A stretch of DNA of 64,000 nucleotides. It comes from Candidatus Nomurabacteria bacterium. GTDB lineage: Bacteria > Patescibacteriota > Minisyncoccia > Phycocordibacterales > UBA9973. A program made the position numbers and the translations under genes. The stretch covers positions 475,181 to 539,180 of the forward strand of contig CP064958.1 in NCBI GenBank assembly GCA_016699085.1, written 5' to 3'. Shown here in pieces: positions 31,459-43,467 of this stretch (position 1 is its first letter; each line of letters begins with the position of its first letter). Under the pieces are notes generated by a model, which worked only from the letters and a program-made list of their open reading frames with translations, was not told the origin of the DNA and did not search any database.

Positions 31459-31566
31459 GCAAAAGAGTATAGCATAGAATAAATAATAGGCAAGCTACAG
31501 TTGCATTAGTGTGATGCCTTGTATAAAATATGACCGCATTATCAGTAATTCACTTAAAGTACATTT

Positions 31567-31866
31567 ATGGCAAAAAAAATTATTCCTTTGGGTGACCGCG
31601 TACTCGTCAAGCCATTACGCGATAGTAAAACTAAAACCAAGTCAGGTATTTATCTACCAGAAGCAAATGAAAAAGAACGTCCGGAACAAGGAGAAGTAAT
31701 TGCTGTAGGGGAAGGAAAAATAAGTGATACTGGTACTCGTATCCCACTTGAGGTCAAAAAAGGTGATACAGTGTTCTTTTCTAAGTATGGTCCAGAAGAA
31801 ATCAAGGTCGACGACAACGAATATCTTCTCATCAAAGAAGATCAGATTTTAGCAATCATTAAATAA
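31567..31866 (+). CDS. groES: Co-chaperonin GroES
   Basis: IIPLGDRVLVK and 99 aa, immediately upstream of groEL. Confidence 0.95.
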   Translation: MAKKIIPLGDRVLVKPLRDSKTKTKSGIYLPEANEKERPEQGEVIAVGEGKISDTGTRIPLEVKKGDTVFFSKYGPEEIKVDDNEYLLIKEDQILAIIK

Positions 31867-31960
31867 ATTTTTAGAAACTATTTTTATCAAGGCCCTCGGA
31901 TTTCCTCGTAAAACTCGGCCAGACCTTTCAAAAAACAGTTTCTAAAGATTTCTCACAACT

Positions 31961-33616
31961 ATGTCCAAACAAATTTTATTTAGCGCAGATGCAAAGATCG
32001 CTTTAAAGCGAGGTATTGATATAGTCGCAGACGCAGTCAAAATAACACTAGGGCCAAGGGGTCGTAATGTTGTCTTCGACAAAGGCTATGGTGCGCCGAC
32101 AATCACGAATGATGGCGTCTCGATCGCCAAAGAAATCACCCTCGCAGATAAATTCGAAAACATGGGCGCGGAAATTATCAAAGAAGTAGCAAGCAAGACC
32201 AATGACATGGCAGGTGATGGCACGACAACATCGGTTATTTTAACTGCTGCGATTATCACGGCAGGGCTCAAACAGACAACTATGGGTGCCAATGGCATGC
32301 TGGTGCGTCGCGGTATTGAATCTGCGAGAGAAGAAGTAGTGAAAGCATTACGTCAAATGGCGCATCCCATTAAAAGCGATGCGGAAATTAGACAAGTAGC
32401 TACTATTTCAGCTGAATCAGAGGAGCTTGGCAATATTATCGCTGACACGATAAAAAAAGTTGGCAAAGATGGTGTTGTCACTGTTGAAGAATCACAATCC
32501 TTTACGGTTGAATCTGAAGTCGTCGAAGGACTCCAATTCGACAAAGGCTATGTGTCGCCGTATATGATCACTGATACTGAACGCATGGAATCAGTTTTCA
32601 AAGATGCACTCGTACTCGTCACTGACAAGAAAATTTCTTCAGTCAAAGAAATTTTGCCACTTCTTGAGAAAGTTGCTCAAACAGGCAAGAAAGAACTTGT
32701 TATCATTGCTGAAGATGTTGATGGGGAAGCACTCACGACGTTTGTCCTCAATAAACTCCGTGGTGGATTTAATGTCTTGGCTGTCAAAGCACCTGGCTAC
32801 AGTGATAAAAAGAAAGATATACTCGAAGATATTGCAATCATAACTGGTGCGAAAGTTATCTCTGATGATGTGGGACTTAAACTTGATACAATCGAACTTA
32901 ACGCACTTGGTCGTGCTAACAAAATTATTGCAACCAAAGATAAGACTATTATCGTCGGTGGTAAAGGTAAAAAGTCAGACCTACAGAAACGAATCGAATC
33001 ACTGAAAGGGCAAATAAATGCTCTCGATGGTAAATTTTCAAAATATGATCGTGAGAAATTAGAAGAGCGTGTTGCAAAACTTTCTGGTGGTGTGGCAGTG
33101 GTGCGTGTTGGAGCAGCCACAGAAACTGAAATGAAATATCTGAAATTAAAGATTGAGGATGCAGTGAACGCTACGAAGGCAGCAATCGAGGAAGGTATTG
33201 TGCCAGGTGGAGGTGTTGCACTCGTCAAAGCTTACGAGAAAGTGAATCGTGATCACATTGCATCAAAACAAAAATATACGAGTGAATTTGAAGTCGGTTT
33301 CCAAATCGTACTTGACGCATTGATGGCACCGCTCAAACAAATCGCTATTAATGCCGGCAAAGAAGATGGTTCGGTTATCGTTGAGAAAGTTAAAAACGGT
33401 AAAGGCAATATGGGATATGATGCCCTCCTCGATGTTATGATTCCCGATATGCTCGCTGCCGGTATCGTTGATCCTGTGAAAGTCACCCGTAGTGGCGTCG
33501 AGCATGCAACAAGCGCAGCTGCAATATTTCTCACGACTGATGTAGCAATTGCAGATCTGCCAGAAAAAGAAAAACCGCAGGCTGGCGGCATGCCGGGGAT
33601 GGGAATGGACTATTGA
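31961..33616 (+). CDS. groEL: Chaperonin GroEL
   Basis: Canonical GroEL sequence (AGDGTTTS, GGVAVVRVGAATETE, C-terminal GGM repeats). Confidence 0.97.
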   Translation: MSKQILFSADAKIALKRGIDIVADAVKITLGPRGRNVVFDKGYGAPTITNDGVSIAKEITLADKFENMGAEIIKEVASKTNDMAGDGTTTSVILTAAIITAGLKQTTMGANGMLVRRGIESAREEVVKALRQMAHPIKSDAEIRQVATISAESEELGNIIADTIKKVGKDGVVTVEESQSFTVESEVVEGLQFDKGYVSPYMITDTERMESVFKDALVLVTDKKISSVKEILPLLEKVAQTGKKELVIIAEDVDGEALTTFVLNKLRGGFNVLAVKAPGYSDKKKDILEDIAIITGAKVISDDVGLKLDTIELNALGRANKIIATKDKTIIVGGKGKKSDLQKRIESLKGQINALDGKFSKYDREKLEERVAKLSGGVAVVRVGAATETEMKYLKLKIEDAVNATKAAIEEGIVPGGGVALVKAYEKVNRDHIASKQKYTSEFEVGFQIVLDALMAPLKQIAINAGKEDGSVIVEKVKNGKGNMGYDALLDVMIPDMLAAGIVDPVKVTRSGVEHATSAAAIFLTTDVAIADLPEKEKPQAGGMPGMGMDY

Positions 33617-33677
33617 TTAAAAAACACGGGTTATTGACTAAAATCACTCATTTATAGATCAAAAAGTATTAACAAGA

Positions 33678-33716
33678 AACCGCCTTGGAATCCATAGATT
33701 TCAAGGCGGTTTCATA
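33678..33716 (+). terminator. Intrinsic terminator after groEL
   Basis: ccgccttg ... caaggcgg stem followed by tttcatat. Confidence 0.55.
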
Positions 33717-33719
33717 TGC

Positions 33720-33748
33720 TTGACATTGCATTTCGTCTCGTCTATACT
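33720..33748 (+). promoter_or_regulatory. Consensus sigma70-type promoter (TTGACA-17-TATACT), probably the rRNA promoter
   Basis: ttgaca at 33720..33725, 17-nt spacer, tatact at 33743..33748, about 215 nt upstream of the 16S 5' end. Confidence 0.7.
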
Positions 33749-33964
33749 ATCTCCACTCTTCAGTAAGAAGGGTATCTAACAGATTATGCCTATGAAAAAC
33801 TAAACTTTTTATTTTGTAAACAAGTAAAGTTCATATATGCGCCTGTTAGACGCTTTTTTCTTTGAAAATTTAAACATCAATGTAATGTGAATTAAAGTCA
33901 GTAAGTAAAGTAATCTGAGTCAAGAAAATGTATTTTTTCTTTTGTTTCGTTCTATTTTTTAAGT

Positions 33965-35608
33965 AGAGTTTGATCCTAGCTCAGGATGAACGCTGGCGGC
34001 GTGGATAAGGCATGCAAGTCGAACGAATTTTAATTGTTGAAGTTGAAATGAAGTAGCAATATGGAATTTTGATAGATATTTTTAAAATTAGTGGCGAACG
34101 AGGTAGTAACACGTGGGTACTTCCCCCTAAGTCGCGAATAATCCATCGAAAGGTGGACTAATACGCGATATACTTCAGAGTGAAAGATTTTTCGCTTAGG
34201 GAAAGGCCTGCGGGATATCAGCTAGTTGGTAGTGTAATAGACTACCAAGGCTATGACGTCTAGGGGAGCTGAGAGGCTGACCCCCACCGATGGGACTGAG
34301 ACACGGCCCATACACCTACGGGTGGCTGCAGTCAAGAACCTTCCACAATGGACGAAAGTCTGATGGAGCGACGCCGCGTGATTGATGAAGTCCTTCGGGA
34401 CGTAAAGATCTTTTATGAGGGAAGAAGTTTATTGACGGTACCTCATGAATAAGGGGCTCCTAATCTCGTGCCAGCAGGAGCGGTAATACGAGAGCCCCGA
34501 GCGTTATCCGGAATTATTGGGCGTAAAGGGTGCGTCGGTTGTTATATTAGCCTCACTTTAAATCTTCATGCTCAACATGAAGCATGGGCGGGGAACGGTA
34601 TGACTAGAGGTTGTGAGAGGTGTGCGGAACTCAAGGTGTAGGGGTGAAATCCGTTGATATCTTGGGGAACACCAAATGCGAAGGCAGCACACTGGCACAT
34701 ATCTGACACTCAAGCACGAAAGCGTGGGTAGCGAATGGGATTAGATACCCCAGTAGTCCACGCCCTAAACGATGATCTCTCGGTTTTCGGAGTATCGACC
34801 CTCTGAGAGCCTAAGCTAACGCGTTAAGAGATCCGCCTGGGAAATACGGCCGCAAGGCTAAAACTCAAAGGAATAGACGGGGACTCGCACAAGCAGTGGA
34901 TTATGTGGTTTAATTCGATGGTAAACGAAGAACCTCACCAGGGTTTGACACCTACGTGAAAGCTCTAAGAAACTAGAGCCCTCGCAAGACTAGTAGGCAG
35001 GTGTTGCATGGCCGTCGTCAGTTCGTGGTTTGAATTGTTCCCTTAAGTGGGGTAACGAACGCAACCCTCGTCGTGTGTTATATTTGTCACACGAGACCGC
35101 CCAGAACAAAGCGCGTGAATGCGCTTCTAGTAGAAAGTGTAAAGTTGAAAGTCAAAAGTGAATTCAGAAATGCATTTACTTTAAACTTTCTACATTCAAC
35201 TTTTGACTTGAAGTGTACATCGTACGTTTCGTTCTGGGAGGAAGGAGAGGATGACGCCAGGTCAGCATGACCCTTTGATATCCTGGGCTACACACATAAT
35301 ACAATGACGGCTACAACGCGTTGCGACGAGGTAACTCTGAGCTAATCGTTATAAAAGCCGCCTCAGTTCGGATTGAGGTCTGCAACTCGACCTCATGAAG
35401 TTGGAATTGCTAGTAATCGCAGGTCAGACATACTGCGGTGAATACGTTCTCGAGTCTTGTACTCACCGCCCGTCAAGTCAAGGGAGCTGGGAATACCCGA
35501 AATTTCTACATTAGTAGGACCTAAGGTAAGCTCAGTGACAGGGACTAAGTCGTAACAAGGCACGGGTAGCGGAAGCTGCTCGTGGAATAATTCAATTTGA
35601 AACCTTTC
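33965..35608 (+). rRNA. 16S ribosomal RNA with lineage-specific insertions (expanded V1 and a roughly 120-nt insert in the helix-40 loop). The 3' tail is atypical and lacks CCUCC.
   Basis: AGAGTTTGATCCTAGCTCAGGATGAACGCTGGCGGCGTG at the 5' end. Universal blocks GTGCCAGCAGGAGCGGTAATAC, GGATTAGATACCC, GCATGGCCGTCGTCAGTTCGTG, TACACACATAATACAATG, GTCGTAACAAGG. The 3' boundary is approximate. Confidence 0.9.
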
Positions 35609-35774
35609 ATTCGTAAGAATGAGATTAAGGTGTCGGTGTTCTGTGCCTCAATTGAGCACAGAATGGTCTATAAGCTTTATGACCTAAAAAAGTTTTGACA
35701 TAAGGGGAAAGACCCTAATAGGACGAAACAAAAGAGGACATACTAAGACTTTCACATACTAAGATGAATAAATA

Positions 35775-35812
35775 ACAGAAAAACCACAATAATTATTGTG
35801 GTTTTTCTGTGT
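35775..35812 (+). terminator. Strong hairpin terminator about 170 nt after the 16S 3' end
   Basis: acagaaaaaccacaataa / ttattgtggtttttctgt, an 18-bp perfect inverted repeat. No 23S gene follows. Confidence 0.6.
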
Positions 35813-35869
35813 CTGCATAAAATTGACATTATATTTATTTATGATATTATGAAGAAAAACTAAACGTAC

Positions 35870-36493
35870 ATGAAAAACAAACAAATAGTGCTTTCAATTT
35901 TTACTTTTGGCCTCATTTTATGTCTGTCAGCATGCGGTATCTTTAACAAAAAGGATGACCCACAGCCGAACATGCCAGTGGTAGAAACACCAGTTGATAT
36001 TTTTTCAAAATTTCATAGTACATGGAATTCCGAAGAAGAAAACTATCAAAGTACTTACCTGCAGCTTCCAGATGGTAACGACAGTTTGATACGGGTTATT
36101 GCTATTACAAATACCGACAATGGATTGGGTGAAAACTTGATTACTATCGATGATGATTTTTTGAATAAGATTGGTCAAGGTATATCAAAAGATTCGGCAT
36201 TTCCTAAGCCACTACCGGATCCGATCTTCGCCGATCTACAAAACCAATTTCAAAATGTGATGCAAACTTTTCTGGATGATTTTTCCAGCGAAAACATAAC
36301 TCGAGATAGTGCTCAGAAAAAGCAAATAGCTACGAGTATATCGCAGGCAAACCCAGCAATGGAGGCGCAGTTTGATGCCTGGATTGAGACAAATTTCAAG
36401 GTTGGTAATCCAAATCAGCCTCGGTATGAGCTCTATATAGGCAGCGATCCTGTTATTTTGCAGCAAATTGCCATATTGCAAAGAGGCAAATGA
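35870..36493 (+). CDS. Hypothetical lipoprotein
   Basis: Signal peptide with a lipobox-like LSACG. 207 aa. Confidence 0.5.
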   Translation: MKNKQIVLSIFTFGLILCLSACGIFNKKDDPQPNMPVVETPVDIFSKFHSTWNSEEENYQSTYLQLPDGNDSLIRVIAITNTDNGLGENLITIDDDFLNKIGQGISKDSAFPKPLPDPIFADLQNQFQNVMQTFLDDFSSENITRDSAQKKQIATSISQANPAMEAQFDAWIETNFKVGNPNQPRYELYIGSDPVILQQIAILQRGK

Positions 36494-36656
36494 GTAAGAA
36501 TAACGTCATTAAATCCCACCAGAGAAATTCTGGATGGGATTTTTATTTTTTATTATGAAATATTTTTTCCGACACTAAAAGGTGCATCACTGTAAGGCTT
36601 ATTCAGAACCCTGCTTTACAAAATATTTTTTCATTTTGAAGGGCTAAAATTGCAAG

Positions 36657-36735: not shown

Positions 36736-39057
36736 ATGGGCAATAAAAAACGACGCATTTCAATACCTTCTGCTGATTTCAAGAAAATCAAAGAGATCCG
36801 TAACCGTGAGCATGATGTTATACCATTTGATATAGCTAAAATCCAGGAAGCGCTCCTCAAAGCGTTTACAGTCACCGGTGAGGGAACTGCGTCTGATGCT
36901 GAGTATATTGCTAGACTTGTCTTCAAAGAACTTCTTGCTCTTCGAAAAGCTTCAAAAGATAAACATTTTGTCCCAACTGTTGAACTCATCCAAGACCTTG
37001 TTGAAGGAGAGCTTATCCGTGAGCAATTTGTTCATACTGCTAAAGCCTATATTCTCTACCGCAATAAACGTGCAGTTCTTCGTCGTGAAGTTGGTCCTGT
37101 CCCTGAGAAAGTAAAACAGCTAACCGAAGAATCTAAGAAATACTTTAGAAATCCGCTTGCCGAATTCGTCTATTATCGATCATATGCGAAGTGGATTGAG
37201 GCCGAAGGCCGTCGTGAGACTTGGATTGAGACCGTTGATCGCTATATGAATTTTATGCGCGAACACATAGGCACCAAGCTTAAAGAATCTGAATACAATG
37301 AAGTCCGAGAAGCAATTTTGAGCCATGATGCGATGCCATCAATGCGCCTCATGCAATTTGCTGATCATGCAGCGAGAAAGACTAATGTCTGCGCTTACAA
37401 CTGTTCATATATTGCGCCGACATGTTTCCAAGACTTTGGTGAAATTATTTATATATCTATGTGTGGCACTGGTGTTGGATTTTCTGTTGAAAGTAAAAAT
37501 ATTCAAGCGTTACCGCAAATCAAACCCCAATCTGGCAAAAAGCCAAGTAAGTATGTTGTTCCTGATAGTAAAGAAGGCTGGGCAGATGCATTTGTGCTTG
37601 GTATGAAGACGTGGTTTGGTGGGGAAGACGTTGAATTTGATTTCTCATTGCTTCGTGGTGCAGGTGCACGACTTCGCACGATGGGTGGCAAGAGTTCTGG
37701 TCCAAAGCCACTCCAAGACCTGTTGCAGTTTACTCGTGAACGTATTCTTCGTCGCCAAGGACGTCATCTGACGAACCTCGATGCTCACGATATTATTTGT
37801 AAGATTGGTGAGTGTGTCGTTGCTGGGGGCGTACGCCGAAGTGCGCTCATCTCGCTCTCTGATCTCGATGATGAAGCGATTCGTGATGCCAAGAAAGGCC
37901 AGTTCTATATCAATGAGCCACAACGCATGCTTGCGAACAATTCTGCCGTCTACGAATCAAAGCCTACAGCAGTCGAATTCATGGATGAATGGATTGCCCT
38001 TATGAAAAGTGGCTCTGGCGAGCGAGGATTGTTTAACCGCGGAGCATTACCAAAGCAGATACCTGAACGTCGCATTAAATTCTGGAAAAAGTCTGGCTAC
38101 ATCAATGCTGATGGACGTGTTGTTGGACTCGTGGGAACCAACCCATGTGGAGAAATTATTTTGAAATCAAAACAGTTTTGTAATCTATCAGAAGTTGTTT
38201 GCCGGGCGGAAGATACAGAAGAATCTCTCATGAGAAAAGTCCGTGTGGCAACAATTTTAGGTACCTACCAATCAACACTTACGTATTTCCCATACCTATC
38301 CAAAGAGTGGAAGAAAAATTGTGAAGATGAAAGACTCTTAGGGGTGTCACTCACAGGTCAATGGGATTCAAAATTTGCTCGTGATCCAAAAATACTTGAA
38401 AAGCTCAAAGCTGAAAGTGTGAAGATCAATAAATTATTTGCTAAACGTTTCGACGTCAATGAATCAACCTGCATTACCTGCGTGAAGCCTTCTGGTACGG
38501 TGTCCCAGGTCGTTGACTGCGCTTCAGGTATGCATCCACGTCATAGCCCATACTACATCCGCCGAGTTCGCATATCTGCAACCGATGCACTTTTCCAAAT
38601 GTTGAAAGACCAAGGTGTGCCATATTATCCAGAAGTGGGACAGAGTGTTGAAAATGCGACGACCTATGTTCTCGAATTCCCTGTAAAAGCTCCAGAAGGT
38701 GCAATTTGTAAAGACGATATCACCGCGCTCGATCAGCTCGCGCATTGGAAAGTTATCAAGGAGCACTTTACTGAGCACAATCCATCAGTGACGATCTCAG
38801 TCGGCGAAGACGAGTGGATCGCTGTTGCACATTGGCTCTATGGCAACTGGGATATGTTAGGAGGGCTTTCATTCTTGCCTCGCTCAAACCACGTTTACCA
38901 GCTCGCCCCTTATGAACCAATTAGCAAAGAGAAATACGAAGAACTTAAGCATACCGTTGAAAACATTGATTTCTCAAAAATTGTTACCTACGAACTCGAT
39001 GATGAGACTGAGGTGAAGAAAGAACTTGCTTGTGTCTCTGGGGTTTGTGAAGTGTAA
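36736..39057 (+). CDS. nrdJ: Class II (adenosylcobalamin-dependent) ribonucleotide reductase with an N-terminal ATP-cone
   Basis: ATP-cone in the first roughly 90 aa. Catalytic core collinear with NrdJ. C-terminal redox Cys pair CVSGVCEV. Confidence 0.9.
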   Translation: MGNKKRRISIPSADFKKIKEIRNREHDVIPFDIAKIQEALLKAFTVTGEGTASDAEYIARLVFKELLALRKASKDKHFVPTVELIQDLVEGELIREQFVHTAKAYILYRNKRAVLRREVGPVPEKVKQLTEESKKYFRNPLAEFVYYRSYAKWIEAEGRRETWIETVDRYMNFMREHIGTKLKESEYNEVREAILSHDAMPSMRLMQFADHAARKTNVCAYNCSYIAPTCFQDFGEIIYISMCGTGVGFSVESKNIQALPQIKPQSGKKPSKYVVPDSKEGWADAFVLGMKTWFGGEDVEFDFSLLRGAGARLRTMGGKSSGPKPLQDLLQFTRERILRRQGRHLTNLDAHDIICKIGECVVAGGVRRSALISLSDLDDEAIRDAKKGQFYINEPQRMLANNSAVYESKPTAVEFMDEWIALMKSGSGERGLFNRGALPKQIPERRIKFWKKSGYINADGRVVGLVGTNPCGEIILKSKQFCNLSEVVCRAEDTEESLMRKVRVATILGTYQSTLTYFPYLSKEWKKNCEDERLLGVSLTGQWDSKFARDPKILEKLKAESVKINKLFAKRFDVNESTCITCVKPSGTVSQVVDCASGMHPRHSPYYIRRVRISATDALFQMLKDQGVPYYPEVGQSVENATTYVLEFPVKAPEGAICKDDITALDQLAHWKVIKEHFTEHNPSVTISVGEDEWIAVAHWLYGNWDMLGGLSFLPRSNHVYQLAPYEPISKEKYEELKHTVENIDFSKIVTYELDDETEVKKELACVSGVCEV

Positions 39058-40634: not shown

Positions 40635-40880
40635 ATGTATTATGTTTACATATTAAAAGGCCCCAAGCAGTTGTATATAGGATCAACCAATGATTTAAAG
40701 CGACGATTTACTGAGCATCAGAATAATGAATCGTTAGCTACAAGAAATCGAGGTCCTTGGACAATTGTGTATTACGAAGCTTCTCGATCTAAAACTGATG
40801 CTTTAATAAGAGAGAAGTATTTAAAAACTGCTTGGGGCCGAAGGTATGTTAAAGGTCGTTTAAAGAACGATAAAGTGTAG
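40635..40880 (+). CDS. GIY-YIG nuclease-domain protein (small, stand-alone)
   Basis: YYVYILKG...LYIGSTNDLKRRFTEHQ is the GIY-YIG signature with the Arg and Glu spacing. Confidence 0.75.
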   Translation: MYYVYILKGPKQLYIGSTNDLKRRFTEHQNNESLATRNRGPWTIVYYEASRSKTDALIREKYLKTAWGRRYVKGRLKNDKV

Positions 40881-41380
40881 TACCTATCTATCTCACGTGG
40901 AGGAAAGTCCGAACACAGCCCCGTGAGATAAGAGTATCTAAATAATTTCTATACTTTCTGAAGCATTAGATAAATAAAAATGGAAATAGTTTGGAGGTTG
41001 TTATCTCACGGGGAGCATAGTAGCGGGTAACGCCCGTCTGGAGTAATCCACGAGGTGCGAGCAGTGACGTCCAATCCGAAAGGAAAGGATATCCCGAGAG
41101 TAATCGAGGGATAAATCTTCGTATAAGTTTAGGGCTTGCCCTCTACGAAGTCGAAGGGTGAAACGGCTAAATCCTTACTTCTGTGCAAGGCCGTGCTATG
41201 GGTAGGTTACAGGTTGTAGGTTAGAGGGAATAGTAATTCGTGAAATGTATTTACTATAACCTATTCACTATCACCTATAACCTGCCCGTGGAGTGCCGCT
41301 TGAGATTGTTGGCAACAACAATCCTAGATAAATGATTATCGCCCCGCACTTGCGGGGTACAGAATTCGGCTTATAGGTAC
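40881..41380 (+). ncRNA. rnpB: RNase P RNA (bacterial type A) with expansion insertions, about 500 nt
   Basis: GGAGGAAAGTCCGAAC (P4 5' strand region), AAGGGTGAAACGGCT, ACAGAATTCGGCTTATAGGTA (P4 3' strand and P1 closing with TACCTAT at the 5' end). Starts at the base after the GIY-YIG stop codon. Confidence 0.85.
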
Positions 41381-41394
41381 AATACAAAATGAAA

Positions 41395-42956: not shown

Positions 42957-43125
42957 TTTGCTATTACTTCAGAATACAGTATACTTTTTATGCAGTCGTT
43001 GTCTGTGTTTACAGCGAGCGGCTGCACTCACATATGCACTTGTGTTGGAGTTAGCACCCGCTCGCTCTAAGCACAGAAAATAAAACACCCCGCACGTGCG
43101 GGGTGTTTTATTTTCTGTTACGTAC
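42957..43125 (+). ncRNA. Candidate small RNA 2, comprising a promoter-like TTGCTA-16-TATACT, a roughly 135-nt structured transcript and a terminator
   Basis: Long imperfect hairpin acagcgagcgg...ccgctcgct. Terminator aaaacaccccgcacgtgcggggtgtttt. No ORF of plausible length. Confidence 0.35.
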
Positions 43126-43257: not shown

Positions 43258-43395
43258 TATTTGCATGAAAAAATATTGTCAGGAAATTTATTCTGTACGA
43301 TAATAGTAGTAGTAATGCATGGTTGATACAACAAATATTTTTTTGTTGTGGTCGCAATCATCGCAGAAAACTTTACAAGCTTAATTCCACAACTA

Positions 43396-43467
43396 TGGCA
43401 ACAAAAAAGAAAGCAAAGAAAGCAGCACCAAAGAAAAAGGCTGCAGCTAAAAAGAAGAAGAAATAGT
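43396..43467 (+). CDS. Micro-ORF encoding a 23-aa Lys/Ala-rich peptide (MATKKKAKKAAPKKKAAAKKKKK), followed by a terminator at 43488..43518
   Basis: ATG-initiated ORF ending in TAG. A hairpin cccct-atcc-agggg with a U-tract lies downstream. Confidence 0.25.

Follow-up and report, generated by a model that had tools for sequence, protein, structure and literature searches.

Heptad-periodic hairpin rods at helix 40 of 16S rRNA and in other stable RNAs of Paceibacteria

The 16S rRNA gene described here carries a long extra segment at the tip of helix 40 (h40), and the question that it raises is what this segment is, how it came to lie there and what becomes of it in the RNA. Intervening sequences (IVSs) of bacterial rRNA are known at helices 9, 25 and 45 of the 23S rRNA in Salmonella, Yersinia, Campylobacter, Leptospira and Coxiella, and in the 16S rRNA of Helicobacter canis, Campylobacter helveticus and Clostridium paradoxum. 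For CPR bacteria, short, ORF-less, non-intron rRNA insertions are recognised, uncharacterised and suspected of being RNase III-type IVSs (PMC11270868), and insertions in CPR rRNA in general are reported to be missing from the transcripts (Brown et al. 2015, as relayed in PMC9297842 and PMC9698310). Earlier work on CPR rRNA insertions focused on large introns and homing endonucleases, leaving the short ORF-less class aside. Such elements bear on the old open question of the origin and mobility of rRNA intervening sequences and expansion segments, which is testable with existing metagenomes and metatranscriptomes.

The helix 40 insertion and its fold

The 16S rRNA gene occupies positions 33958-35597 (1640 nt) on the forward (+) strand of the window, by which we mean the whole 64-kb stretch of DNA that was analysed; all other features named below lie on the same strand. 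It matches the full Rfam model RF00177 (model positions 1-1533, 1334.6 bits), carries no kilobase intron and lacks CCUCC at its 3' end. Covariance-model alignment of the 3' domain places 126 nt (35108-35233) at the h40 apex, where the model loop holds 2 unaligned nt. The flanking segments GACCGCCCAGAAC (35095-35107) and CUGGGAGGAAGG (from 35234) align with the two sides of the model hairpin at ~1149-1168, which corresponds to GACUGCCAGUGAUAAACUGGAGGAAGG of E. coli, i.e. helix 40. An earlier note on this DNA had placed an insert of about 120 nt in this loop between preserved flanks, and had named a mistaken assignment of those flanks as what would overturn it. Because 126 nt fill a 2-nt model loop, and helix 39 (h39) just upstream is a normal short hairpin of 27 nt (35068-35094, of the same length in all 110 relatives considered below), a mistaken assignment of the flanks does not account for the insertion. 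The insertion of ~126 bases is confirmed, and it makes a long hairpin rod, set at the exact apex of helix 40 with the host stem intact. The note's attribution of the DNA to a CPR-type lineage is likewise borne out by the Parcubacteria/Paceibacteria setting.

The segment 35095-35245 folds with -57.2 kcal/mol, compared with -30.5 +/- 3.6 kcal/mol for 200 dinucleotide shuffles (z = -7.39; none of the 200 equals it), in agreement with the structured insert of the note, and the MFE structure is a single rod of 54 pairs. At its foot is P0, the base stem of helix 40, in which the 5' strand CCCAGAAC (35100-35107) pairs with the 3' strand GUUCUGGG (35231-35238) both in the covariance-model alignment and in the MFE structure. 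Three further parts can be told apart: P1, a 5' local hairpin AAGCGCG-UGAA-UGCGCUU (35109-35126) with compensatory variants (AAACGCG/CGCGUUU) in the relative L012; P2, the central rod (35129-35208 by its MFE pairs, with a 65.8-bit match to the family model R1 at 35126-35212); and P3, a 3' local hairpin GAAGUGUAC-AUC-GUACGUUUC (35210-35230), which has homologous hairpins with compensatory changes in L012 and L025. P2 is made up of a 5' arm of (NNAAAGU)x4 (35129-35159), the apex GAAUUCAGAAAUGCAUUUAC and a 3' arm of ACUUU-type repeats (35178-35209). Both arms are periodic at 7 nt (p = 0.003 and 0.007), with TRF reporting 2.2 copies of period 14 over the 5' arm (35129-35159), and they are degenerate 7-nt tandem repeats mirrored across both strands.

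Two substructures singled out in the earlier note are present in the sequence and absent from the predicted fold. The GC hairpin gcgcgtgaatgcgc lies at 35111-35124, inside P1, but is unused in the MFE structure (pair probability ~0.001); P1 is an alternative to the basal pairing of the rod, and the hairpin belongs to a fold with a four-way junction, whose computed stability is 4.8 kcal/mol below that of the single rod. The 11-bp core is indeed a perfect 11-nt inverted repeat (35149-35159 / 35199-35209), but it is also outside the MFE structure, and its pair probability of ~0 rules it out as the structural centre; it is a slipped register permitted by the repeat units of the arms. The transcript of the insert can fold on itself, either as one rod of ~54 bp or as the P0 stem with P1, P2 and P3, and the single rod is the MFE structure in eight of nine family members.

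CPR 16S genes often bear group I/II introns and LAGLIDADG genes (PMC11270868), and relatives in our data set have insertions of ~1 kb at other 16S sites, with one group I intron match, so that a self-splicing intron or homing-endonuclease insertion is a reading with precedent in this group. At h40 it is effectively refuted. The insert has 126 nt, compared with at least ~200 nt for group I/II introns, its fold is a simple hairpin, and no catalytic intron covariance model matches it: searched alone, it hits no Rfam family, intron families included, even at E <= 1, and the Rfam scan at the gathering score returned no intron family. The sole ORF over the insert is a spurious, GTG-initiated one of 65 aa (35073-35270), with no record and no homologue in protein collections, so that it led to no further rRNA contig, RNA-derived assemblies included; no LAGLIDADG or GIY-YIG ORF lies in the insert, in agreement with the note.

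Helix 40 across Paceibacteria

The comparison set consists of 110 related Paceibacteria 16S genes, from a DNA sample centred on 16S genes. Across these 110 genes the length of h39 does not vary, and every difference in length falls in h40, which has from 0 to ~280 extra nt; some extension is present in 90 genes and none in 20. Among the full-length 16S genes, 36 of 48 have an insertion at h40, the site where insertions are most frequent in the clade as a whole. The lengths of the h39-h40 segment form classes of 56, 83-107, 122-144, 156-212 and 235-334 nt, with a conserved basal motif. Presence and length of the rod differ between sister taxa (92/157, 157/97, 185/100 and 166/100 nt in four sister pairs), and the sequence differs as well. 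The long inserts follow a common plan of base stem, 5' hairpin, long rod with 7-nt-periodic arms and 3' hairpin. At least one significantly periodic arm is found in 21 of 33 long inserts, and the period is 7 in 24 of the 31 significant arms, with differing unit sequences.

The pairing is maintained in the sense RNA and the rod is not merely a palindrome in the DNA, because G.U pairs far outnumber A.C mismatches (347 vs 58) and the sense strand folds better than the antisense strand (81 of 89 cases; mean difference -8.5 kcal/mol, p = 1.2e-14). These data also speak to the suspicion that the insert is a palindromic chimera in the assembly of the 16S contig. Other assemblies of the same organism end at the 16S borders, which leaves the insert without independent confirmation for the strain, but the same architecture recurs at the same nucleotide position in ~90 assemblies made independently in many studies, the stem of the host helix is preserved exactly, and G.U-rich pairing is not expected from an inverted-duplication artefact. 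We regard an assembly artefact as very improbable.

The graded length series and conserved basal motif also fit in-situ growth of a retained helix. On such a reading, the insert would be a retained expansion segment in which a free, solvent-exposed helix grew by stepwise accretion and by compensatory slippage of short repeats on both arms, as in the expansion segments of eukaryotes, with the rod kept as a protrusion of the 30S head and the rods at other sites produced by the same mutational process. The h40 length series is continuous and apical accretion is seen among the close relatives L029, L028 and L060; the arms are tandem repeats, with a one-armed AAAGT tandem array in L023; and the pairing of the helix is preserved in the RNA. 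Other features sit poorly with it, and we consider it rather unlikely overall. Long near-perfect duplexes are generic substrates of RNase III in bacteria, and in the long inserts the basal arms are each self-complementary (-7.5 and -5.8 kcal/mol, vs -1.0 and -1.8 kcal/mol in controls, p = 1.4e-8), a property that has no role in a plain retained rod and that end-capping hairpins would need.

Closer relatives were sought through exact and homologous matches to the products of the flanking genes (GroEL upstream, a 207-aa protein and RNR downstream), and all contigs of the same or near organisms found in this way end at the 16S borders. The organism is present in SRR11674009, SRR11674012, SRR26424591 and SRR26425196. 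No relative with more than 92% 16S core identity and the same insert was retrieved, so that no recent insertion event is documented, and a metagenome scan with an h39-based lineage pattern gave ten matches, none with the same insert.

Related rods at other sites and in RNase P RNA

Insertions of this kind had been taken in the earlier note to be specific to each lineage. This is not supported: the rod belongs to a sequence family that is found in h40 of distant species, and whose other sites are helix 6 (h6) of 16S rRNA, the leader and the trailer of 16S, and RNase P RNA. Similarity scores of the h40 insert against L081, L012, L025, L072, L008, L099 and L020 are 37-82, where the null maximum is 32, and homologues of the NNAAAGU-repeat rod are present in h40 of eight species. 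Copies outside h40 lie in h6 of L081 and L072, in the 16S leader of L072 and L110, in the 16S trailer of L064 and, twice, in the RNase P RNA of L066. Individual genomes have three copies (L072), two (L081 and L066) or two to three (L110), and the window has the h40 rod and rod B of RNase P RNA, described below; multiple related copies at unrelated loci of one genome are a feature of MITEs and palindromic mobile repeats. Rod identity is 0.78 within genomes and 0.70 between genomes (p = 0.003), on low-complexity sequences that raise the baseline. Rods are more alike when they share a genome than when they share a site, and the site-specific vertical growth of expansion segments is not the pattern observed. 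The h6 and h40 rods of L081 share their apex sequence.

Consensus folding of a 14-copy family alignment gave 11 consensus pairs, mostly invariant, and covariation in P2 is uninformative because the variable number of repeat units prevents clean alignment. The whole element is palindromic, with the flanking P1 and P3 hairpins made of target sequence. Hallmarks of mobility, such as a transposase or a target-site duplication, were not found; this includes inspection by eye of five filled sites for target-site duplications and a Pfam scan of 14 of the ~65 ORFs of the window, which showed neither a transposase nor an RNase III gene.

The RNase P RNA gene of the window, of class A, lies at 40880-41384 (RF00010, 71.5 bits, E = 1.2e-21; P4 signature GAGGAAAGUCCGAACAC), and two rod insertions push it below the Rfam gathering score. 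Rod A, a 95-nt extended hairpin directly after the 5' strand of P4 (40919-41013; -38.8 kcal/mol, z = -7.45), is unrelated in sequence to the h40 rod (similarity p = 0.49), and its site is empty in L023, which has a 6-bp GNRA hairpin there, and filled in L066, which has an AAAGT rod. Rod B (94 nt, 41197-41290; -39.0 kcal/mol, z = -5.74) has arms with a 7-nt period (NNNAGGU / CCUAUNN), and its apex is homologous to that of the h40 rod (local alignment score 36 vs null 15 +/- 2.5, p ~ 0.0005), being the best non-self match of the h40 apex in the whole 64 kb; the family model R1 did not detect rod B at E < 0.05. Homologues of the rod extend beyond h40 and beyond 16S rRNA, to RNase P RNA in this genome among others. 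A census of 100-nt folds supports a confinement of AT-rich repeat-armed rods, though not of strong folds in general, to the 16S and RNase P genes within the window, since coding DNA rich in G+C and a hairpin of sRNA type were picked up too.

The presence of rods on RNase P RNA adds to the case for retention, since we know of no precedent for a fragmented bacterial RNase P RNA, and this disfavours cleavage of the rods in general. As to growth in place, slippage alone is insufficient, because non-repetitive apex sequences recur at different sites and genes (h40 and rod B; h6 and h40 of L081), and that similarity tracks the genome and not the site also counts against it.

A different proposal would be that the heptad rod is a functional add-on, serving on several stable RNAs as a binding platform or tether for a dsRNA-binding or repeat protein, for localisation or for protection. 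The recurrence of the 7-nt period in many lineages despite different units, the occurrence of the module on ribosomal and RNase P RNAs and the RNA-level selection for pairing would suit such a role. We nevertheless judge it improbable: 20 of the 110 relatives do without an h40 extension, sister taxa differ in presence and sequence, a patchiness typical of dispensable elements, some copies sit in the leader and trailer, which are lost at maturation, and no candidate partner protein was identified.

Origin, fate in the RNA and consequences

Our best explanation, to which we give an even chance, sees in the insert a member of a family of small, palindromic, AT-rich rod modules of Paceibacteria (Parcubacteria, CPR). 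These would resemble IVSs and be copied from one hairpin tip to another in stable RNA genes, and into rRNA spacers. The module would spread at the DNA level from hairpin tip to hairpin tip, perhaps by template switching, fold-back synthesis or some transposition or gene-conversion process, would then lengthen by heptad slippage on both arms, and would persist only where a self-folding helix is harmless, i.e. at solvent-exposed hairpin tips and in discarded spacers. In the RNA it may act like a classical bacterial intervening sequence. We lean slightly towards P2 being cut by a double-strand-specific RNase of the RNase III type, after which P0 would hold the nicked helix 40 together, and P1 and P3 would shield the new ends as terminal hairpins. 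The main alternative to cleavage of P2 is that the rod is retained as a protruding expansion segment; at the level of DNA the two are indistinguishable, and the earlier note was right to allow for either. The computed preference for the single rod over the four-way junction weighs against our explanation. Retention and copying are compatible, and growth in place of a retained segment partly overlaps the copying of modules favoured here. More tentatively, we propose that Paceibacteria harbour previously undescribed heptad-periodic palindromic rods that copy between the hairpin tips of stable RNAs, with P1-P2-P3 as an "excision cassette" from which the central rod is removed while the side hairpins cap the resulting RNA ends.

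Several known systems resemble the rods in part. Like bacterial IVSs, which are suspected of horizontal movement, the h40 insert is in the range of ~100-200 nt, replaces the apical loop of a conserved, surface-exposed rRNA hairpin with its base intact, has a long duplex stem, and is sporadic among close relatives, and IVSs too usually have no ORF. It differs in that h40 is not a classical IVS site, that the rod family also extends to RNase P RNA and to the rRNA leader and trailer, that the rod arms are 7-nt tandem repeats flanked by P1 and P3, and that RNase III removes IVSs from the precursor without re-ligation, leaving a fragmented mature rRNA, which for the rod is a proposal.

Apical growth of a peripheral helix with an undisturbed core, extreme length variation and co-varying simple-sequence arms are shared with rRNA expansion segments (ES), such as eukaryotic ES with their "cryptic simplicity" and compensatory slippage, Mycobacterium 23S H54a and Asgard archaeal ES. 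Expansion segments are, however, site-specific and retained, whereas the rods are a sequence family at several sites and in a different RNA. To our knowledge, no expansion segment has been described at h40.

Rickettsia palindromic elements, yeast mitochondrial GC clusters (PMC4478555), the double-hairpin elements of Allomyces mtDNA and REP/BIME are, like the rods, multicopy hairpin-forming repeats of ~100 nt that are tolerated in variable loops of structural RNA genes and patchily distributed. The rods are AT-rich heptad arrays instead of GC clusters, have a low copy number (two related copies in 64 kb), are accompanied by no identified RAYT or IS200-like transposase, and have so far been seen only in stable-RNA transcription units, a statement that is biased because the DNA sample was centred on 16S genes.

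A close match in CPR bacteria is the short insertion class of Tsurumaki et al. (2024, PMC11270868), which is described as <200 bp, ORF-less, without group I/II match and situated at the top of stem-loops, and is left uncharacterised there, unlike the structured, repeat-built, multi-site family found here. Our data show that at least part of the short ORF-less class is a coherent family with a recognisable architecture, conserved 7-nt periodicity, RNA-level selection and a presence on several stable RNAs. If the copying of modules is true, the rods would be the equivalent, in bacteria, of the hairpin elements of organelles, and would offer a concrete case in which to trace how an IVS or expansion segment originates and spreads.

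There are practical consequences as well. The rods drop RNase P RNA under the Rfam gathering score and leave it unannotated in such genomes, and, if they are cleaved, measures of rRNA integrity would be misleading for these organisms. With up to ~280 nt added to V7, they also matter for the design of amplicons and probes. At the other end of the gene, V1 (helix 6; 34026-34090), in which the earlier note had seen a second, smaller expansion, is longer than usual, with 65 nt between conserved anchors and 48 nt compared with 8 in the model loop of RF00177, but it is different in kind from the h40 insert. Its fold is no better than that of shuffles (z = -0.40), and with its GUAGCAAUAU apex it belongs to the class of V1 regions of 65-80 nt that have a GTAGCAATAC apex in common (GUAGCAAUAC, a GCAA tetraloop), which together rule out a second insertion of the h40-rod type; V1 is an ordinary, clade-conserved long h6.

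Position and fold of the helix 40 insert

The 16S rRNA gene (33958-35597, + strand) matches the bacterial SSU rRNA covariance model over its full length at 1334.6 bits. In the alignment of its 3' domain, the sequences GACCGCCCAGAAC (35095-35107) and CUGGGAGGAAGG (from 35234) are placed, with posterior probability of about 1, on both strands of the hairpin that reads GACUGCCAGUGAUAAACUGGAGGAAGG in E. coli, i.e. helix 40 (h40), and the loop between them is filled by 126 nt (35108-35233). The net insertion with preserved flanks described in an earlier note is thus confirmed, and since helix 39 (h39) directly upstream is short and normal, the scenario by which the note could have been refuted, divergence of helices 39-41 with no net insertion, does not apply. 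The segment 35095-35245 has a folding energy of -57.2 kcal/mol; dinucleotide shuffles give -30.5 ± 3.6 kcal/mol (z = -7.39). An Rfam search of the insert returned no family, even at E ≤ 1, and there is no verbatim second copy within the 64-kb window. The sole ORF across the insert encodes 65 aa from a GTG start, and neither a record nor a homologue was found for it, in agreement with the note's statement that no homing endonuclease is present. Identity as an intron or homing-endonuclease element was considered and rejected; we give a small probability to an intron, as we do to an artefact or a functional platform.

The minimum free energy (MFE) structure of the insert region is one rod (a long hairpin with repeat-built arms, carried on the tip of a stable-RNA hairpin) of 54 pairs, which continues h40 coaxially. 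In an alternative fold at -52.4 kcal/mol, a base stem P0 (35100-07/35231-38) bears three hairpins, P1 on the 5' side (35109-35126), the long central P2 (35129-35208) and P3 on the 3' side (35210-35230), all on the + strand. The GC hairpin and 11-nt inverted repeat of the earlier note are present as sequence, but neither belongs to the MFE structure: the hairpin (35111-35124) is part of the alternative fold, and the perfect repeat (35149-59/35199-209) lies in a slipped register with pair probability of about 0. Both arms of P2 consist of degenerate heptads: the 5' arm is (NNAAAGU)x4 and the 3' arm is made of ACUUU-type units, with 7-nt autocorrelation at p = 0.003 and 0.007; TRF reports a tandem repeat of period 14 x 2.2 in the insert.

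The V1 expansion that was also claimed is real in length (65 nt), but it is not a rod. Its fold is no better than shuffles. V1 lengths in the clade form three discrete classes (11-32, 54-56 and 65-80 nt), and the window V1 has the conserved apex of the longest class, GUAGCAAUAC. The V1 of the window is an ordinary inherited long helix 6 (h6) and not a rod insertion in this genome, in contrast to the h6 rods of the related contigs L081 and L072.

Helix 40 in related genomes

Relatives were retrieved by a 16S signature just 3' of h40, giving 120 species-representative contigs (L-numbers), nearly all labelled Parcubacteria/Paceibacteria or other CPR (Nomura-, Kaiser-, Zambryski-, Taylor-, Yonathbacteria and similar), with other taxa named in a few titles. 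Across the 110 contigs with both anchors, h39 is constant at 27 nt and h40 accounts for all length variation. The h39-h40 segment measures 56 nt, a minimal hairpin, in 20 taxa, 83-107 nt in about 45, 122-144 nt in 8, 156-212 nt in about 33 (181 nt in the window) and 235-334 nt in 4, and ten additional metagenome contigs have the same spread. Relative to a minimal reference, 36 of 48 full-length 16S genes have an insertion in h40, the commonest site, ahead of V1 and the kilobase-intron sites. The distribution is patchy: the nearest relatives have a 16S core identity of only 90-92% and their h40 is already wholly different, and sister taxa on the core tree are unlike in h40 (92 vs 157, 157 vs 97, 185 vs 100 and 166 vs 100).

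The extension helix is maintained at the RNA level. Neutral decay of a DNA palindrome would be expected to give equal numbers of G.U pairs and A.C single mismatches, whereas 347 and 58, respectively, are found, and in 81 of 89 cases the sense strand has a more stable fold than its reverse complement (mean -8.5 kcal/mol, Wilcoxon p = 1.2e-14). Periodic autocorrelation is significant in at least one arm of 21 of the 33 long inserts, with period 7 in 24 of 31 significant arms and repeat units that vary by lineage (NNAAAGT, GTTNNTA, CAACNAC, GAATNNT, NNNTAGA, AATTTNN). Each arm can pair with itself within its basal 28 nt (-7.5 and -5.8 kcal/mol; central-arm controls, -1.0 and -1.8; p = 1.4e-8), a property that a plain rod does not need, and the P0-P1-P2-P3 layout is therefore widely recurrent. 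L141 has a P0 identical to that of the window, with an unrelated, CA-rich/UG-rich P2.

At the base of the extension many relatives carry a conserved motif, 5' RGCGCAYGAAG ... CUUCGYGAAU 3' (e.g. L039, L063, L073, L081, L088 and L139), which is common to the short and long h40 classes and forms a small internal loop just above the canonical stem. The graded length series with a conserved basal motif speaks for a retained expansion segment that has grown in place, an alternative that we regard as possible on balance but rather doubtful. A second, unrelated insert type is a hairpin module of about 55 nt, CUGUGG...GUAUUUAUAU...CCACAG, present in one clade of related species in one (L080), two (L066, L098), three (L022) or four (L011) tandem copies; here h40 grows via module duplication, not rod elongation.

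A multi-site family of rods

The window insert resembles the h40 inserts of L081, L012, L025, L072, L008, L099 and L020 (scores 37-82, null maximum 32), which are scattered on the core tree among short-h40 taxa. Further copies were sought by pattern, BLAST and covariance-model searches of 0.98 Mb of DNA centred on rRNA genes. The rods found beyond h40 have AAAGT units and the apex type GUGAAUNC...GNAUUUAC in common, and occur in the V1/h6 loop of the same 16S (L081 and L072), the 16S leader (one in L072, two in L110), the 16S 3' trailer (L064) and RNase P RNA (two in L066). None was detected in protein-coding DNA, a weak statement given this rRNA-gene-centred sample. Mean identity is 0.78 between sites within a genome versus 0.70 between genomes (p = 0.003), the latter also being the mean for same-site h40 rods between genomes. 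About 1 kb downstream of its 16S, L023 has a one-armed tandem array (1939-2035, +): five TTCATAAAGT-type units lacking a complementary arm, with a terminator hairpin directly after. The array may be a rod remnant or precursor.

In the window, a long hairpin flagged at about 40965 led to a class A RNase P RNA (about 40880-41384, +), which at 71.5 bits (E = 1.2e-21) falls under the Rfam gathering cut-off of 100 because of two rod insertions of about 95 nt. Rod A (40919-41013, +; z = -7.45) comes directly after the P4 strand, at a site occupied by a 6-bp GNRA hairpin in L023 and an AAAGT rod in L066. In rod B (41197-41290, +; z = -5.74) the arms have a 7-nt period, and alignment of the apex AAUAGUAAUUCGUGAAAUGUAUUUACUAUAACCU with that of h40, AAAAGUGAAUUCAGAAAUGCAUUUACUUUAAACU, scores 36 (shuffles 15 ± 2.5, p ~ 0.0005); apart from itself, the h40 apex has no better match than rod B on either strand of the 64 kb. 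As slippage cannot give two unrelated loci a non-repetitive apex in common, copying of some form between hairpin tips is required. The location of rods in RNase P RNA also counts towards retention, as we know of no precedent for a fragmented RNase P RNA. The L066 RNase P RNA shows the same effect on score (63 bits), and rod insertions probably cause under-annotation of RNase P RNA in genomes of this kind.

P1 and P3 are built of target sequence (h6-specific in h6, h40-specific in h40), which is better explained by fold-back or template-switch synthesis at a hairpin than by cut-and-paste transposition that leaves a short target duplication. We infer that the rod module spreads at the DNA level from hairpin tip to hairpin tip; it would then lengthen through heptad slippage in both arms, and would survive where an autonomous helix is harmless. 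The insert looks like an expansion segment and would work like a bacterial IVS or palindromic gene-invading repeat: it is not site-specific as an expansion segment is, and it has the structure and distribution of an IVS, a class defined by excision with fragmentation. We hold this IVS-like family reading with roughly even confidence. In favour of excision, RNase III generically cleaves long near-perfect duplexes, and P1 and P3 could plausibly cap the new RNA ends; an RNase J gene, identified through the Pfam annotation of its identical L121 counterpart, lies inside the window. Some rod copies are located in the leader and trailer, which are discarded anyway. Also counted for excision, transcripts are reported to lack CPR rRNA insertions (Brown et al. 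2015, as relayed in PMC9297842 and PMC9698310), and it has been suggested that their short non-intron class may be RNase III-type IVSs (PMC11270868). In the part of the literature covered, we found no description of repeat-armed rods common to 16S and RNase P RNA in CPR.

The 16S locus and neighbouring features

No 23S or 5S gene is linked to the 16S gene (window 31500-36500), which is flanked on one side by groES-groEL (GroEL at 31961-33616), an arrangement common to the nearest relatives (GroEL identity 97% and 79%), and on the other by a 207-aa protein with no Pfam match and then a class II ribonucleotide reductase (36736-39057). Kilobase-size 16S insertions occur in L110, L010, L072, L099 and L043 at sites ~720 and ~1320 of the minimal reference, the latter being the published position-1400 intron site; a group I intron match lies in L110, and in L072 and L020 there are group II D1-D4 matches shortly after the 3' end of the 16S. 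The window 16S has none of these.

The 16S 3' end (35560-35597), GGAAUAAUUCAAUUU, is devoid of the CCUCC anti-Shine-Dalgarno, also absent from 103 of 109 related 3' ends; about half of Parcubacteria have previously been reported to have lost it (PMC9297842). GGAG, GAGG or AGGA is found at -20..-4 in only 1 of 45 window genes (background 8.4%). The top 5-mers in the 20 nt before ATG-start ORFs are TATAC, ATACT and TACTA (11 of 45 genes), and TATACT may be the -10 element of very short-leader or leaderless transcripts. It likewise precedes a small hairpin RNA at about 42985, a candidate gene (42985-43115, +; no Rfam match at gathering score) in which TATACT is followed by a G+C-richer hairpin of about 85 nt (-43.4 kcal/mol in a 100-nt window) and a clean intrinsic terminator, AAAACACCCCGCACGUGCGGGGUGUUUU. 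Within a 750-nt intergenic gap, a tiny ORF (43395-43466, +) encodes the Lys/Ala-rich 22-aa peptide MATKKKAKKAAPKKKAAAKKKK and is followed by a terminator.
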